Translations under genes and position numbers: made by a program | Source of the DNA: an uncultured Candidatus Binatia bacterium | GTDB lineage: Bacteria > Desulfobacterota > Binatia > UBA9968 > JAJDTQ01 | DNA: 64,000 nucleotides | Direction: 5' to 3' | Assembly: GCA_965213675.1 (NCBI GenBank) | Contig: OZ243916.1 | Span: forward strand, 2,912,001-2,976,000 | Notes under the pieces: generated by a model | The model's input: the letters and a program-made list of their open reading frames with translations, nothing else | Databases searched by the model: none | What the model was told of the DNA's origin: nothing | Shown: piece by piece, positions 43,539-47,625 of the stretch | Numbering within the stretch: the first letter of the stretch is position 1 | Layout: every line of letters starts with the position of its first letter

Positions 43539-44588
43539 TCACTCCGGCTTCACCAGGCGTCCCTCTCGTACCAGCCGCTCGATGATCTTGCGCGCCTCGG
43601 CGCGGGTCTCGACAGTGTCCTGCAGCTTGCGGTCGCGCCAGCCGTCGTTGGGCCAGCGCTTGGCCTTGGCGTAGACGGGCGCGTACATGTCGCTGCGCAG
43701 CTCGATGAGGAAGTTCCACACGTGGCCCGAGTCGGTCATGCGCGTGCGCTCCCAGCGCAGGTTGTCGATATCCACCATGCCGGTGACCACCGCCTCGCCC
43801 GGGGCATCGGCCGACGCCTGCACGTGGCCCATGTAGTCGATGACCTGGGTCATGCCGCGGTAGCCGCCGGTGGGGCGGTTGGAGCCCACGAAGGCGCCGC
43901 AGTTGACCGACAGGAAGTAGCACAGGTTCTCGTAGGCGCGGGCGCGCCGGAGCACGTCCCAGGCCTCGCCCTCGGGCGCGTAGGGCTCGGCGGTGGGGTG
44001 GATCAGCACCTCCGCGCCGCGCAACGCCAGGCAGCGGGCCATCTCCGGGAACACCACGTCGGTGCAGGTGAGGCACCCCAGCCGGCCGATCTCGGTATCC
44101 GCCACCGGGAACATGGCGTCCTCGCCGTAGCGCTCGGTGTACTCGGTGTAGACATCGCCGGGTCCGGTGTAGGTGGTGTTGAGGTTGTTCGGCCCGTTGT
44201 TCTTCCGGTACTTGAGGACGATGTTGCCGTCCGGGTCGATGATGAAACTCGTGTTGAAGAGCCGGCCGGGCCAGTCGTCGTCGCGCTCGTAGAGGTTGCC
44301 GGCGATGTGGCAGCCGCGCTCCTTGGCCTTGCGGCCGATCTGGTCGGTGACGTCGCCGGGGATGGTCTCGGCCAGGGCCAGCCACTCGTCCACCGACCGC
44401 GGCCGGTACTGGCCGATGATGCCGTACTCCGAGAACACCGCCAGCTTCACGTCCCCCAGGCGCAACGCGGTCCAGTCCAACAGCTCGAAGATGCGCCCGA
44501 GGTTCTCGTCGATGATCGCGTTGCGCTCCTTCGGTTCGACGATGACGCGGGTCTGTTGCTGTATCAGTGCGACTCGATAGGGTCTCAT
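43539..44588 (-). CDS. Nitrilase/carbon-nitrogen hydrolase family protein
   Basis: Catalytic E-K-C context: VFSEY, FNTSFII...KYRK, DTEIGRLGCLTCTD, FPEMARCLALRGAEV, RARAYEN. Confidence 0.9.
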   Translation of the reverse strand: MRPYRVALIQQQTRVIVEPKERNAIIDENLGRIFELLDWTALRLGDVKLAVFSEYGIIGQYRPRSVDEWLALAETIPGDVTDQIGRKAKERGCHIAGNLYERDDDWPGRLFNTSFIIDPDGNIVLKYRKNNGPNNLNTTYTGPGDVYTEYTERYGEDAMFPVADTEIGRLGCLTCTDVVFPEMARCLALRGAEVLIHPTAEPYAPEGEAWDVLRRARAYENLCYFLSVNCGAFVGSNRPTGGYRGMTQVIDYMGHVQASADAPGEAVVTGMVDIDNLRWERTRMTDSGHVWNFLIELRSDMYAPVYAKAKRWPNDGWRDRKLQDTVETRAEARKIIERLVREGRLVKPE

Positions 44589-44646
44589 GAGGCCTCCAAC
44601 GTTGTGTCAATACTCCGCTCGGAAGAGAAATGGCACGCACGACCCG

Positions 44647-44754
44647 AATCGTCATTCCCGCGGAAGCGGGAATCCAGGGGTGGGGAGGGGCAAACGGCGT
44701 CGCTTCCCGGCCCCACCACCCCTGGATTCCCGCTTCCGCGGGAATGACGATTCG
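44647..44754. repeat. REP-like palindromic element, family A
   Basis: GAATCGTCATTCCCGCGGAAGCGGGAATCCAGGGG ... CCCCTGGATTCCCGCTTCCGCGGGAATGACGATTC. Confidence 0.9.
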
Positions 44755-44850
44755 TAACGGTTCCGTCTCACGAGTTTTGACACAGCCTGTTTCGAGGAGA
44801 TGACGATACGGGGCGTCGGCCTCACCCCGTGCTCACGCGGAGTCCTGGCA

Positions 44851-45015
44851 CTAGTGTGGTGTCTGGATAACTCGCGTCATAAACTGCGGGTTTTTTTCGC
44901 CGTCGGCTGCGTTGCTCTTCCTTGCGTGGTACCCGCCACTGCTCGTCATCGCGCCTTGCCGACGACAAAAAATCCTCCGCAGATTATGACCCGAATCAAC
45001 CAGACACCACACTAG
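44851..45015. mobile_element. Family C MITE (165 bp, CTAG-bounded, ~39-bp imperfect terminal inverted repeats)
   Basis: CTAGTGTGGTGTCTGGATAACTCGCGTCATAAACTGCGG ... CCGCAGATTATGACCCGAATCAACCAGACACCACACTAG. Confidence 0.85.
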
Positions 45016-45914
45016 CGCCATGTGCTGTTCACCGTCTCCAGGTACCACTCCGCCATTTCCTCGCGCTTGGGATACCACACTCCGTCGAAGGATTTCACGT
45101 AGTCCACGAACTCGCGCAGGGCGCGGATGGCGTAGGCCTGGCCCATGACGTGGGGGTGCATGCCGACGTTCATGATGCGGCCGCTGTCGGCGCCTTCGAG
45201 GTAGAGCTGGTCGAACTGTTCCTTGAACAGGTCCAGCGCCTGGGAGGTGGTGCGGCCGCCGCGGGAGAACACGGCAAAGTCGTTGACGTCGTTGGAGTAG
45301 GGGATGCACACCAGCGGTCCGTGGCGGGTGTTCAGTAGATAGGGCTGGTCGTCGTTCAGGTAGTCCGCCTGGAACAGCAGGCCCAGCTCCTTCAGGATGT
45401 GGGGCGTCTCGTGGGTGCTCCGGAGCGACGACGACAGCCATCCCCGGGCCGGCCGCCCCACCGTTTCGGCATACACGTCCAGAGTGCGGCGAATGATCTC
45501 GCGCTCCTGGTCCGGCTGGTAGGCGTAGTAGGTGAGCACGTCGTTCTGGGCGTAGTTGTGCGCCAGGATTTCCCAACCGCGCTCGTTGACCGCATCGATG
45601 ATGCGCCGGCGCTCGATACCCGTGAGCGCGTTCATGGTGCAGGTCGCCGGCACCCCGGCCTTGTCGAACACGTCGATGATGCGCCACACGCCCACGCGCT
45701 GGCCGTACTCCCGCCAGGTCCAGTTGGCGTAGTCCGGGACGTTGCCCGGCACCACGTGGGGAATGGTCGCCGGCCCGCCGGGATAGAGTGGCTCCTTGGT
45801 GTCGCGGGTGATCTCCCAGTACTCGATGTTGATGGTGAAGATCATGGCCACCCGCGCGCCGCCGGGCCAACGCAGCGGCGGTCGGTCGGGAAAGGCGACG
45901 TAGTCGTAGAGCAT
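45012..45914 (-). CDS. Polysaccharide deacetylase family protein (PuuE-like)
   Basis: RPPLRWPGGARVA, INIEYW, WREYGQRVGVWR, WEILAHNY, ARGWLS, NDDQPY, IPYSNDVND, MHPHVMGQ. Confidence 0.9.
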   Translation of the reverse strand: MLYDYVAFPDRPPLRWPGGARVAMIFTINIEYWEITRDTKEPLYPGGPATIPHVVPGNVPDYANWTWREYGQRVGVWRIIDVFDKAGVPATCTMNALTGIERRRIIDAVNERGWEILAHNYAQNDVLTYYAYQPDQEREIIRRTLDVYAETVGRPARGWLSSSLRSTHETPHILKELGLLFQADYLNDDQPYLLNTRHGPLVCIPYSNDVNDFAVFSRGGRTTSQALDLFKEQFDQLYLEGADSGRIMNVGMHPHVMGQAYAIRALREFVDYVKSFDGVWYPKREEMAEWYLETVNSTWR

Positions 45915-46154
45915 GGGAAGCTCCTTTCGGGGTTGGGATCGGATTCGGGCAGGGTAGCATTTCCCTGCCCCCGCGTCCTGAGCCACGGTTCCTCTGCCAG
46001 GGCCGGCTCCATGCGGACAGGGCATCCGCTGCGCTGCGTCAGGTTACGCGGTTTGCGGGCATGACCGACGTGAACCCTGGAAACAGATCACAAGCGGTCG
46101 ACGGTTGCGCACGCACGCCAACACGCGCACAATGACCATGGAGGTGCGAAAACC

Positions 46155-46691
46155 ATGCGACGATTTCAAACCAGGACGCGGGCCTTGGCGGTGGCGTTGC
46201 TGCTGGCCGTTGCGCTCTTGGCGGCGGCCGGGAACGCGGCGGCTTCGCTGGTGGGCAGGCAGGCGCCGGAGTTCACCAACGATACCTGGATCCACACGGA
46301 GGGGGCGGCGCTGCGGCTGAAGGACCTGCGTGGGAAAGTGGTCCTCATCGAGTTCTGGACCTACGGCTGATACAACTGTGTCAACACACTCCCATCGTTG
46401 GTGGGATGGCACAAGGAATACGGCCCCCGGGGCCTCGTCGTCGTGGGAATCCACTCGCCGGAGTTTTCCCACGAACACTCGCTGGAAAACGTCAGGAACG
46501 CCTGCAAGGAACTGGGCATCGAGTTCCCGGTGGCGCAGGACAACGACTTCGCCACCTGGAAACGCTACGGCACACGCTACTGGCCCACGATCCACATCAT
46601 CGACAAGAAAGGCGTGATCCAGTACACGCGCTTCGGCGAGGGCGGCTACGACGAGATGGAAGGGATCATCCAGCGGTTGCTGGCCGAGTAG
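46155..46691 (+). CDS. Exported TlpA/DipZ-like thioredoxin (redoxin), predicted selenoprotein (UGA at 46368 read as Sec; U-Y-N-C active site)
   Basis: ORFs 46155..46370 and 46398..46691 are in one frame: LRGKVVLIEFWTYG-TGA-YNCVNTLP...GLVVVGIHSPEF...VAQDNDFATW...YWPT...GEGGY; the TGA aligns with the first Cys of the family WTYxCxNC motif. Confidence 0.88.
46377..46413 (+). other. Candidate bacterial SECIS hairpin
   Basis: Lower stem TGTGTCA/TGGCACA, bulge ACACAC, upper stem TCCCATC/GGTGGGA, apical loop GTT starting 26 nt after the UGA. Confidence 0.65.
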
Positions 46692-46945
46692 ACGCTGGCC
46701 CTGTCAAGATGGGTCACGGTGTCGCGGTATTGGGGCGGGCTCTTTGCGGTGAACCCTTCGAACAGGCCTTCCATCCGGGCCATGCGCTGGCGCACGTCTG
46801 ATACGTCCCGCCGCAACTCGCCGATGGCTGCGTTCGGTTCCTGCTGGCCGTTGCGAATCACACGGTGCAGCGTGATTCCTGTGCCAAATATGGCGACCCT
46901 GAGCATGGCGACCCTGACCGCAACAAGACCGATCACGGGTTCCAT
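46646..46945 (-). CDS. Small hypothetical membrane-anchored coiled-coil protein (possibly degenerate)
   Basis: Hydrophobic N-terminus then IGELRRDVSDVRQRMARMEGLFEGF; overlaps the redoxin 3' end. Confidence 0.45.
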   Translation of the reverse strand: MEPVIGLVAVRVAMLRVAIFGTGITLHRVIRNGQQEPNAAIGELRRDVSDVRQRMARMEGLFEGFTAKSPPQYRDTVTHLDRASVYSASNRWMIPSISS

Positions 46946-46977
46946 GATTTGAACTTTACGTCACGGATCGCGTGGTT

Positions 46978-47625
46978 TCAGCCCGCAGCCGGGCAGCTTA
47001 CCCCGGTGCCGCCCAAGCCGCAGTAGCCCCAGGGGTTCTTGGCGAGGTACTGCTGGTGATAGTCCTCGGCGAAGTAGAAATCGCCGGCGTCCAGGATTTC
47101 GGTGGTGATGGCGCCGTAGCCGGCCTTGGACATTTCTTCTTGATAGCGCTCGCGTGATGCTTCGGCGGCCTGCTTCTGGGCGTCGCCGTGCGTATAAATC
47201 CCGGAGCGGTACTGCGTGCCCACATCGTTGCCTTGGCGCATGCCCTGGGTGGGGTCGTGGGCTTCCCAGAACACCCTGAGCAGGGAGCTGTAGGTCACCA
47301 CCTTGGGATCGAACACCGCCAGCACTACCTCGTTGTGCCCGGTCCTGCCGGTGCACACCTCCTCGTAGCTGGGATTCGGCGTCAAGCCGCCGGCGTATCC
47401 CACGGCCGTGGTGTAGACTCCGTCGAGCTGCCAGAAACAACGCTCCGCGCCCCAGAAACAGCCCAGTCCGAACACCGCCTGCTCCATGCCCTCGGGATAC
47501 GGCGGCTCCAGCGGATGGCCGTTCACGAAATGCGTTTCCGGCACGGGCATCTTGTCCTGCCTTCCGGGCAGTGCCCTGGCCGCGTCCGGCATCTTCGTCT
47601 TCTTGCCCAGCAAGCCCCAAAGCAT
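46978..47625 (-). CDS. msrA: Peptide-methionine (S)-S-oxide reductase
   Basis: [72 protein letters not shown]. Confidence 0.98.

Follow-up and report, generated by a model that had tools for sequence, protein, structure and literature searches.

An in-frame UGA marks a predicted exported thioredoxin-fold selenoprotein gene, routinely split by gene callers, in an uncultured Candidatus Binatia bacterium

The window analyzed here is a 64,000-nt stretch of the genome of an uncultured Candidatus Binatia bacterium (NCBI GenBank assembly GCA_965213675.1, contig OZ243916.1, positions 2,912,001 to 2,976,000 of the forward strand); unless a contig is named, positions are those of the window. Its forward strand carries, at 46155-46691, a gene that we call the seleno-redoxin gene, in which an internal UGA is predicted to encode selenocysteine (Sec) at the first redox position of a U-x-x-C active site. 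The same UGA recurs in the closest relatives, the genome holds the Sec machinery, and a short hairpin resembling a selenocysteine insertion sequence (SECIS) follows the UGA. Judged by these comparisons, the locus is almost certainly a genuine selenoprotein gene. We give a probability of about 0.85 to the overall explanation that its product is an exported seleno-oxidoreductase of envelope oxidative repair, of the type of the DipZ C-terminal domain and TlpA; the repair-reductase role within that explanation, argued by analogy, has about even odds. An exported selenoprotein with U-x-x-C had been proposed in a preliminary description made from the letters of the DNA, and the single-TGA frame, the conserved UGA, the machinery and the hairpin all agree with that proposal, including its predicted Sec insertion.

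Reading frame and annotation

The gene runs in one frame from ATG to TAG (46689-46691), with 178 codons including U72. Its sole internal stop is the TGA at 46368-46370, around which the translation reads ...KVVLIEFWTYG-U-YNCVNTLPSLVGWH..., and the frame continues free of other lesions to a normal C-terminus, as first described. Its features are the following.

46140-46144, forward strand: Shine-Dalgarno-like GGAGG, 10 nt 5' of the ATG, read from the sequence
46155-46691, forward strand: seleno-redoxin coding sequence, from its translation, Pfam matches, DipZ match and a frame that 36 genomes keep both before and after the TGA
46155-46244, forward strand: predicted signal peptide, residues 1-30, with a basic n-region, an Ala/Leu-rich h-region and A-A-A before S31 at the presumed cleavage site
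46368-46370, forward strand: UGA predicted to be read as Sec (U72), the first redox residue of U-x-x-C, from comparison of orthologues and homologues
46377-46379, forward strand: TGT, predicted resolving Cys75 of U-x-x-C, Cys in 36 of 36 Sec orthologues
46390-46406, forward strand: SECIS-like hairpin, 7-bp stem (46390-46396/46400-46406) with loop GUU (46397-46399), 26 nt after the UGA
46377-46413, forward strand: extended stem-bulge-stem, lower stem 46377-46383/46407-46413, in the minimum-energy fold of 46360-46430
46584-46586, forward strand: CCC, Pro144 of R-Y-W-P, the expected cis-proline from the DipZ RYWP alignment, Pro in 36 of 36 (column 117)

Most orthologues likewise have a GGAGG-like motif upstream of the start chosen for them. 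Scanning for promoters and terminators gave no promoter-like site and just three weak terminator-like sites, all on the minus strand.

Under genetic code table 11 the frame breaks into a 71-aa open reading frame (ORF; 46155-46370) and a 97-aa ORF (46398-46691), and the public record has the same form. Among 5.8 billion clustered proteins, full-length relatives were at best 59% identical, with source names such as thiol-disulfide isomerase/thioredoxin or redoxin, and the relatives at 70-95% identity in public proteins were fragments only, either C-terminal pieces of 96 aa or N-terminal pieces of 67-71 aa, and some came from contigs several Mb long. Gene callers split this gene, as the preliminary description had anticipated; it is real but routinely mis-annotated.

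Conservation of the UGA

We searched 61 genomes (the organism's own and 60 relatives) in six frames and found 41 places in 40 genomes, 38 of which cover the active site. Exactly one in-frame TGA was present in 36 of these 38, at identities from 99% to 44%; the TGA forms comprise the own genome, 23 of 23 same-genus matches (the genus being represented by 27 further genomes) and 12 matches from the same order. The motif W-T-[YH]-G-U-x-N-C surrounds the TGA in all 36. The two site-covering places without a stop were a Cys form (G050) and one in which the active-site motif was not located (G049:C31). Past the TGA, residues are kept although their codons differ (Gly, Pro and Val columns, for instance, are conserved in 36 of 36 and use 3-4 codons each), which indicates that the downstream part is translated. 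A phylum-level sample of 401 genomes added 11 further places, of which ten lack a stop and one is a remote TGA form (G096).

A wider scan with one genome per species, from which 80 loci of 293 relatives were kept, separated the two forms by identity. All 17 loci at 68-93% identity carry TGA, their records being titled Candidatus Binatia, Deltaproteobacteria, Thermodesulfobacteriota or Syntrophobacterales metagenome-assembled genomes, and all 63 loci at 58% identity or less have TGC or TGT and come mostly from Nitrospira, Gammaproteobacteria and Chloroflexota, the Nitrospira homologues being Cys forms at about 50% identity. The TGA/Cys pairing that had been suggested as a check was therefore found, with TGA in 36 of 38 orthologous places and TGC or TGT in 63 of 63 distant homologues.

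The codon was also compared with other assemblies. In two DNA runs, the contigs covering the stretch show no difference at 46368-46370 and none has TGC or TGT; one of them is near-identical and may come from the same DNA source. The TGA is also retained in site-spanning metatranscriptomic contigs (about 91% identical) from two libraries, each of a different study, a weak hint of continuous RNA, with transcription and strand beyond what such contigs show.

These data bear directly on whether the locus is a pseudogene, two small genes or a sequencing error, as its two ORFs under table 11 and the fragments in public gene calls might suggest. The same TGA occurs in 36 genomes with amino-acid conservation in both halves and in 17 of 17 close public records, a split would cut the fold at the active site, and no covering contig differs at the codon. 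Since the TGA and both halves are conserved, all three possibilities are excluded for practical purposes, and we regard them as extremely improbable.

Selenocysteine machinery

The preliminary description had called for a search for Sec genes, and the own genome holds them: selA (517.7 bits), selB (SelB-specific winged-helix domain, 75.5 bits) and selD (377 bits) are clustered at C1:2714015-2718389, outside the window, and tRNA-Sec (75.2 bits, anticodon TCA) occurs at two places, C1:323217-323307 on the minus strand and C4:3174-3264 on the plus strand. The selD gene itself contains one TGA (C1:2717493), at the known Sec/Cys site of that protein (KAAG-U-AAK). SelA was found in 59 of the 61 genomes, including every TGA-form genome, and because it is nearly universal among these relatives its co-occurrence is consistent with Sec use but does not discriminate.

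Other candidate genes of the genome were read for interruptions. The formate dehydrogenase alpha genes contain no in-frame stop, and no Sec-type TGA interrupts the molybdoenzyme gene near tRNA-Sec. This flanking gene also matches twice (C1:324118-325035 and C4:1446-2366); the doubled tRNA-Sec region is either a real duplication or a redundant copy on C4, the assembly contamination figure being 8.03. A crude genome-wide scan combining TGA, a GU-loop hairpin and high GC content at third codon positions gave 78 candidates, mostly spurious, missed selD by design and was dropped.

A short hairpin after the UGA

Among the Sec forms of the order, all 19 distinct 27-nt segments form a hairpin at the same spot (−8.8 to −12.8 kcal/mol), with loops GUU, AGUU or AGUUG. 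The hairpin persists across changes in the encoded peptide, from PSLVGW to PQLAGW, PSLVDW, PRLADW, PQLRGW and PQLRAW, and its arms change jointly, from CCCAUC/GGUGGG to CCGUC/GACGG to CCCGC/GCGGG. One lineage has exchanged the Ser codon TCG for AGT and still keeps the GUU loop, now with a bulged U. The loop-forming Leu codon is TTG in 36 of 36 Sec forms, whereas it makes up 21 of 331 codons (6.3%) at ten further columns with conserved Leu and about 8.5% of all Leu codons in the genome. Among columns that are at least 4-fold degenerate, synonymous entropy was 0.53 over codons +1 to +13 and 1.17 elsewhere (n = 7 vs 57, Mann-Whitney p = 0.005, a value that overstates the case because the rows are related).

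Cys forms differed at this site: 63 of them folded at −0.1 to −7.6 kcal/mol, and among nine further Cys forms two (L053 and L056) reached about −10.5 kcal/mol, so that 2 of 72 Cys forms match the Sec forms, all of which have the hairpin. All 20 sequences tested were more stable than the mean of their own synonymous shuffles. In the same genome, selD carries a hairpin with matching geometry (GACCUG-GUG-CAGGUC, a 6-bp stem with the loop G as the 28th nucleotide after the UGA, compared with the 27th in the redoxin gene), which serves as an internal positive control; the local SECIS consensus was defined from these two genes. In L053 (G335:C7), a locus adjoining msrP/msrQ, the hairpin is CCGCG-CUG-CGCGG, with a loop lacking GU.

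Several results weigh against reading this hairpin as a SECIS. Taken alone, the hairpin of the window is unremarkable (z = −1.33, 22 of 200 shuffles folding at least as well), and synonymous-codon shuffles equal or exceed its stability in 28% of cases when weighted by usage and in 17% when uniform. Cys forms L053 (−10.9 kcal/mol) and L056 (−10.4 kcal/mol) have an equally stable hairpin. The stem-bulge-stem at 46377-46413, which the preliminary description drew with a G-initiated loop, does match the minimum-energy fold, with loop GUU, but its lower stem is kept only in the closest relatives and is not maintained in the aligned loci L027-L050. A fixed-column count gave 71.9% paired compared with 71.3% in shuffled data, with one pair changed on both sides (4 cells); RNAalifold did not recover the hairpin; and an Rfam scan of 45900-47000 (E up to 10) returned three chance-level matches and no SECIS family. 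RNAalifold offered a weak long-range alternative (−1.93 kcal/mol) that we did not adopt.

Fixed-column covariation and RNAalifold fail here because the pairing register shifts by one base between clades, and these tests were replaced by per-sequence folds, comparison of Sec with Cys forms, and codon-level tests. On the evidence of those sequence comparisons, we conclude that the upper hairpin with its GU loop appears to be under nucleotide-level selection and is the predicted SECIS, to which SelB is predicted to bind.

The hairpin and the machinery also bear on a reading without selenium, in which the UGA would be passed by read-through, by suppression with an ordinary tRNA (for Trp, Cys or Gly) or because the organism has a different genetic code. 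Two points leave room for it, both of which count against our own: Sec insertion is itself a prediction, and the window's hairpin is not significant by energy alone. The genome, however, has the full Sec apparatus with a UCA tRNA-Sec, homologues have Cys rather than Trp or Gly at the site, the GUU-loop hairpin is constrained at the nucleotide level and lacking in Cys forms, and the selD TGA lies at a known Sec/Cys site and is followed by a matching hairpin. We consider suppression very improbable.

Sec and Cys forms in a quick tree

A quick tree of 108 rows and 141 columns was built without motif-less or stop-containing rows and without L076-L092, which were assumed, unchecked, to be the same species as the loci of G-numbered genomes. 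Sec rows fell into two groups, f1+f2 with 28 rows (Shimodaira-Hasegawa-like approximate likelihood ratio test (SH-aLRT) 98) and f3 with 8 Sec and 2 nested Cys rows (SH-aLRT 99), the nested Cys rows coming from other phyla. At least three changes between Sec and Cys are forced once the remote G096 form is included, and since the joining of the two Sec groups is unsettled in this tree we make no claim of a single origin. The Cys forms inside the f3 group, L127 and L150 (Rokuibacteriota and Anaerolineaceae records), have a decayed hairpin region (...TTGCGGGA..., −4.3 and −6.2 kcal/mol) and could be Sec-to-Cys conversions after transfer. The remote TGA redoxin (L063, G096:C258) reads FWTYC-U-INC, has no signal-like N-terminus, and has a hairpin of −8.0 kcal/mol whose different shape does not match that of the Sec forms; its genome also holds a Cys paralogue (L058), and L063 may be a separate Sec family.

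Fold, active site and export

The protein matched three Pfam families above their cut-offs, AhpC-TSA (65.4 bits, cut-off 26), Redoxin (51.8, 26.6) and Thioredoxin_8 (37.4, 27). The closest solved structure was the C-terminal thioredoxin-like domain of Mycobacterium tuberculosis DipZ (2hyx, E = 3.5 × 10−41, residues 27-176), in which the first Cys of C-I-N-C aligns with U72, placing the TGA at the attacking Cys of the DipZ/TlpA motif as first described. The next-best structures were the thioredoxin-like domains of SOQ1 (7djj) and NHLRC2 (6gc1), followed by ResA and other TlpA-like proteins. The active site W68-T-Y-G-U72-Y-N-C75 fits the W-x-x-x-C-x-x-C pattern, and the cis-Pro loop is present (R-Y-W-P144 aligned to DipZ); a cis-proline is an expected feature of the thioredoxin fold. 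The NCBIfam equivalogs ResA (69.5 bits, cut-off 170), TlpA (32.4, 230) and DsbE (28.2, 123) were all below cut-off, as was the ResA-like selenoprotein model WAxxUGC_long (28.4 bits, cut-off 300). We conclude that the sequence matches predict a thioredoxin fold of the DipZ-C/TlpA type.

The same matches speak to a different chemistry, that of a periplasmic, peroxiredoxin-like seleno-peroxidase in which U72 would react directly with H2O2, organic peroxides or hypochlorous acid (HOCl) rather than with protein disulfides. AhpC-TSA is the top Pfam match and a GSHPx match exists at 21.5 bits, under its cut-off; T69-Y-G-U72 resembles the TxxC/TxxU peroxidatic motif reported for Sec-peroxiredoxins in one review (PMC13188914), the Thr is kept in 36 of 36 Sec forms and most Cys forms, and the association with msrPQ, a known oxidant-stress system, described below, would fit a peroxidase equally. 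The closest structures, however, are disulfide reductase domains (DipZ, SOQ1, NHLRC2, ResA), and a 2-Cys peroxiredoxin structure matched at just E = 3.8 × 10−4, compared with 3.5 × 10−41 for DipZ. The peroxidatic motif P-x-x-x-T/S-x-x-C is incomplete, T-x-x-U being present and its Pro replaced by I65, and the U-x-x-C spacing with a downstream cis-Pro is the arrangement of thioredoxin and TlpA. On balance a peroxidase is unlikely.

Export was assessed from hydropathy together with an AxA-like motif. The N-terminus MRRFQTRTR-ALAVALLLAVALLAAA-GNAAA|S resembles a signal peptide, with a maximum 12-residue hydropathy of 3.20 here and of 2.27-3.34 across the 36 of 36 Sec orthologues, each of which then has an AxA-like motif. 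This pattern agrees with the signal peptide proposed in the preliminary description and predicts export across the cytoplasmic membrane.

Gene neighborhood

Downstream, on the opposite strand, lies a gene for a methionine sulfoxide reductase.

46978-47625, reverse strand: msrA (PMSR 212 bits, TIGR00401 226.5 bits), Cys-type GCFWG, convergent to the seleno-redoxin gene

This gene had been taken as a hint of a role in oxidative repair. Among 24 same-genus loci, 20 have msrA convergent with the redoxin gene, and of the other four two stop at contig edges. It stands beside 15 of the 17 close public records, but the 12 Sec loci from beyond the genus all lack it as a neighbor. The MsrA N-terminus has no hydrophobic segment, in line with the earlier remark that it lacks an obvious signal peptide.

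The neighbors in sister families give the idea of oxidative repair a different footing. With the exception of L048, the Sec loci outside the genus adjoin msrP (11 of 12), and msrQ was found in seven of these; the neighbors were identified by NCBIfam as MsrP (NF003767, 471-491 bits, cut-off 207) and MsrQ (NF003831, 153-195 bits, cut-off 130). At nine loci msrP directly follows the redoxin gene on the same strand, with msrQ found next in five and the remaining four ending at or shortly after msrP, and one Sec locus has the order msrP-msrQ-redoxin. At L049 (G035:C21, 488-1900), the Sec-redoxin frame meets no stop before entering the C-terminal half of MsrP (positions 102-169 of Oxidored_molyb), and msrQ follows; this is either a deletion-fusion or an assembly artifact. 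The msrP/msrQ neighborhood is shared by the Cys forms L051, L053, L144 and L152. Many Nitrospira Cys forms (L093-L155) adjoin a gene about 30% identical to part of MsrP, which probably encodes another sulfite-oxidase-family molybdoenzyme. A gene for an extracytoplasmic function (ECF)-type sigma factor lies upstream in two f2 loci.

Against an oxidative-repair role stand several features of the neighborhood and of the reasoning. Synteny in one genus, convergent units and a cytoplasmic-looking MsrA make the msrA adjacency weak evidence, and the original hint from msrA holds just in part; what favors the broader idea of oxidative repair is the msrP/msrQ adjacency in sister families. In the window's own genus msrPQ is not beside the redoxin gene, and the own genome has msrP-msrQ from C1:586141-587091 onward, about 2.37 Mb away, with no redoxin beside them. 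The stand-alone CcdA gene (DsbD_TM, 70.4 bits; C1:2884570-2885214) is likewise unlinked, 73 kb from the redoxin gene. The functional reading as a whole draws on gene neighborhood and family analogy.

The neighborhood also bears on a role in cofactor or metal-centre maturation, as for TlpA, ResA and CcmG, in which the selenoprotein would act on the cysteines of apocytochrome c or of copper chaperones rather than in repair. The weak NCBIfam similarity to ResA (69.5 bits), TlpA (32.4) and DsbE (28.2) points that way, as does a gene for a metal-binding YHS domain upstream in two f2 loci. Those scores are nevertheless far under the cut-offs given above, no gene for cytochrome c maturation or a copper chaperone was present in the 14 loci scanned, and the recurring neighbor is msrP/msrQ. 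We hold maturation to be quite improbable.

Other features of the locus belong to this genome or genus. Two genes lie upstream and divergent (43539-46025, reverse strand), one polysaccharide-deacetylase-like (45012-46025) and one for a carbon-nitrogen hydrolase (43539-44588); of the 49 loci searched, 21 have the former and 16 the latter, every one of them from this genus. A 99-aa ORF (46646-46945, reverse strand) that lies between the redoxin gene and msrA has no counterpart in any other locus and was treated as spurious. The spacer of about 290 bp between the stops of the two genes (46692-46977) is peculiar to this genome, and the genes nearly abut in relatives.

Comparison with known systems

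The M. tuberculosis DipZ C-terminal domain (2hyx, 5cyy) shares the [FW]-x-Y-x-C-x-N-C context, the RYWP cis-Pro and the GEG motif with the seleno-redoxin, and we take it to lie on the extracytoplasmic side. DipZ differs in having Cys where this protein is predicted to have Sec, and in being fused to a CcdA-like membrane domain and to an extra C-terminal domain (chains of 352-360 residues), whereas the seleno-redoxin stands alone behind its signal peptide, with CcdA as a separate gene.

Thioredoxin-fold proteins with UxxC are the commonest predicted class of bacterial selenoproteins. The accessible parts of two reviews list among the predicted UxxC families a 'Prx-like thiol:disulfide oxidoreductase' (PF00578), a 'Thiol-disulfide isomerase-like protein' (PF13905/cd02966) and a 'Redoxin family protein', and classify them by conserved domain and Sec motif (PMC13188914, PMC9312934). 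Having the same Pfam domains and U-x-x-C, the present gene falls into these families by their domain-plus-motif rule, not by sequence comparison. The same parts of the reviews make no mention of a DipZ-type WTYGUxNC clade, of export, of a Binatia-like lineage or of linkage to msrPQ. The NCBIfam models WAxxUGC_long (NF041054) and ResA (NF002854) resemble the seleno-redoxin in their TlpA/ResA-like fold and in a Sec in the active-site region, but the motif of WAxxUGC_long is U-G-C rather than U-x-x-C, and with 28.4 bits against 300 and 69.5 against 170 the protein is a member of neither.

Thioredoxin-like partners of envelope methionine sulfoxide reductases include the N-terminal domain of Neisseria PilB/MsrAB and the pneumococcal Etrx1/2, which work with MsrAB2; these are extracytoplasmic, TlpA-like and Cys-using and reduce thiol-dependent MsrA/B. 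Residues 46-161 of the seleno-redoxin match NF010625 (MsrA/MsrB bifunctional) through the thioredoxin-like part of that model, and the structures 2yp6, 4hqz and 4hqs, also matched, are chains named 'thioredoxin family protein'. Unlike the partners of those thiol-dependent enzymes, the neighbor here is the molybdenum enzyme MsrP, described as fed by MsrQ (PMC8945050). As MsrP gets its electrons from MsrQ, a direct reductant role for the seleno-redoxin is not expected.

The predicted SECIS can be set beside the E. coli fdhF type, a hairpin immediately 3' of the UGA within the coding sequence with G-U in the apical loop. Position within the coding region, 3' of the UGA, and the apical G-U are common to both; the element here differs in its stem of 5-7 bp, its loop of 3-5 nt and the placement of that loop 26 nt after the UGA. 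Our search of full-text literature outside subscription journals turned up no study of this clade or of any link to MsrPQ. The seleno-redoxin is of a kind already known, a UxxC thioredoxin-fold selenoprotein, and what is modestly new is the msrPQ association and the compact, lineage-specific SECIS.

Proposed function

We infer that Sec is inserted, that the protein is exported, what it acts on and that CcdA reduces it. In the mechanism that we propose, one gene would encode an exported thioredoxin-fold thiol/selenol-disulfide oxidoreductase with the active site U72-Y-N-C75. SelB carrying Sec-tRNA(UCA) would bind the short hairpin, with its GUU loop 26 nt after the UGA, and Sec would be inserted in place of termination; the signal peptide would take the protein across the cytoplasmic membrane. 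There the selenolate would attack the oxidized sulfur of envelope proteins (disulfides or sulfenates), Cys75 would resolve the selenenylsulfide, and re-reduction would probably run through a CcdA-type membrane electron shuttle. The gene would thus belong to an envelope oxidative-repair set, in which sister families have it in an apparent operon with msrP-msrQ.

Published work describes MsrPQ as a molybdenum- and heme-based system of periplasmic methionine sulfoxide repair in which MsrP takes electrons from MsrQ (PMC8945050), and links it to hypochlorite defense (PMC4436054). Since MsrP needs no thiol reductant, the association points to co-function of the seleno-redoxin rather than electron donation. 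A more specific version, which we offer tentatively and think rather doubtful, is that the seleno-redoxin is a dedicated third component of MsrPQ envelope repair in this lineage. Its selenol might reduce sulfenates or disulfides on the same periplasmic clients whose methionine sulfoxides MsrP repairs or, alternatively, might keep MsrP itself reduced under hypochlorite-type stress, and the need to function in an oxidizing compartment would explain the recruitment of Sec. If this were so, the protein would be a periplasmic protein-repair enzyme that uses Sec and has a defined partner system.

Implications

A conserved gene is cut into two meaningless fragments across the public records of this uncultured lineage, and because the split is systematic the redox-defense inventory and the selenoproteome of the lineage are under-counted. 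The compact SECIS pattern (a stem of 5-7 bp whose loop contains GU and lies about 26-27 nt past the UGA) may be used to seek further selenoprotein genes in these genomes. The recurrent linkage to msrP-msrQ would give a concrete handle on the role of a predicted periplasmic DipZ-type redoxin, and makes this lineage a case for studying why Sec would replace Cys in an oxidizing compartment.

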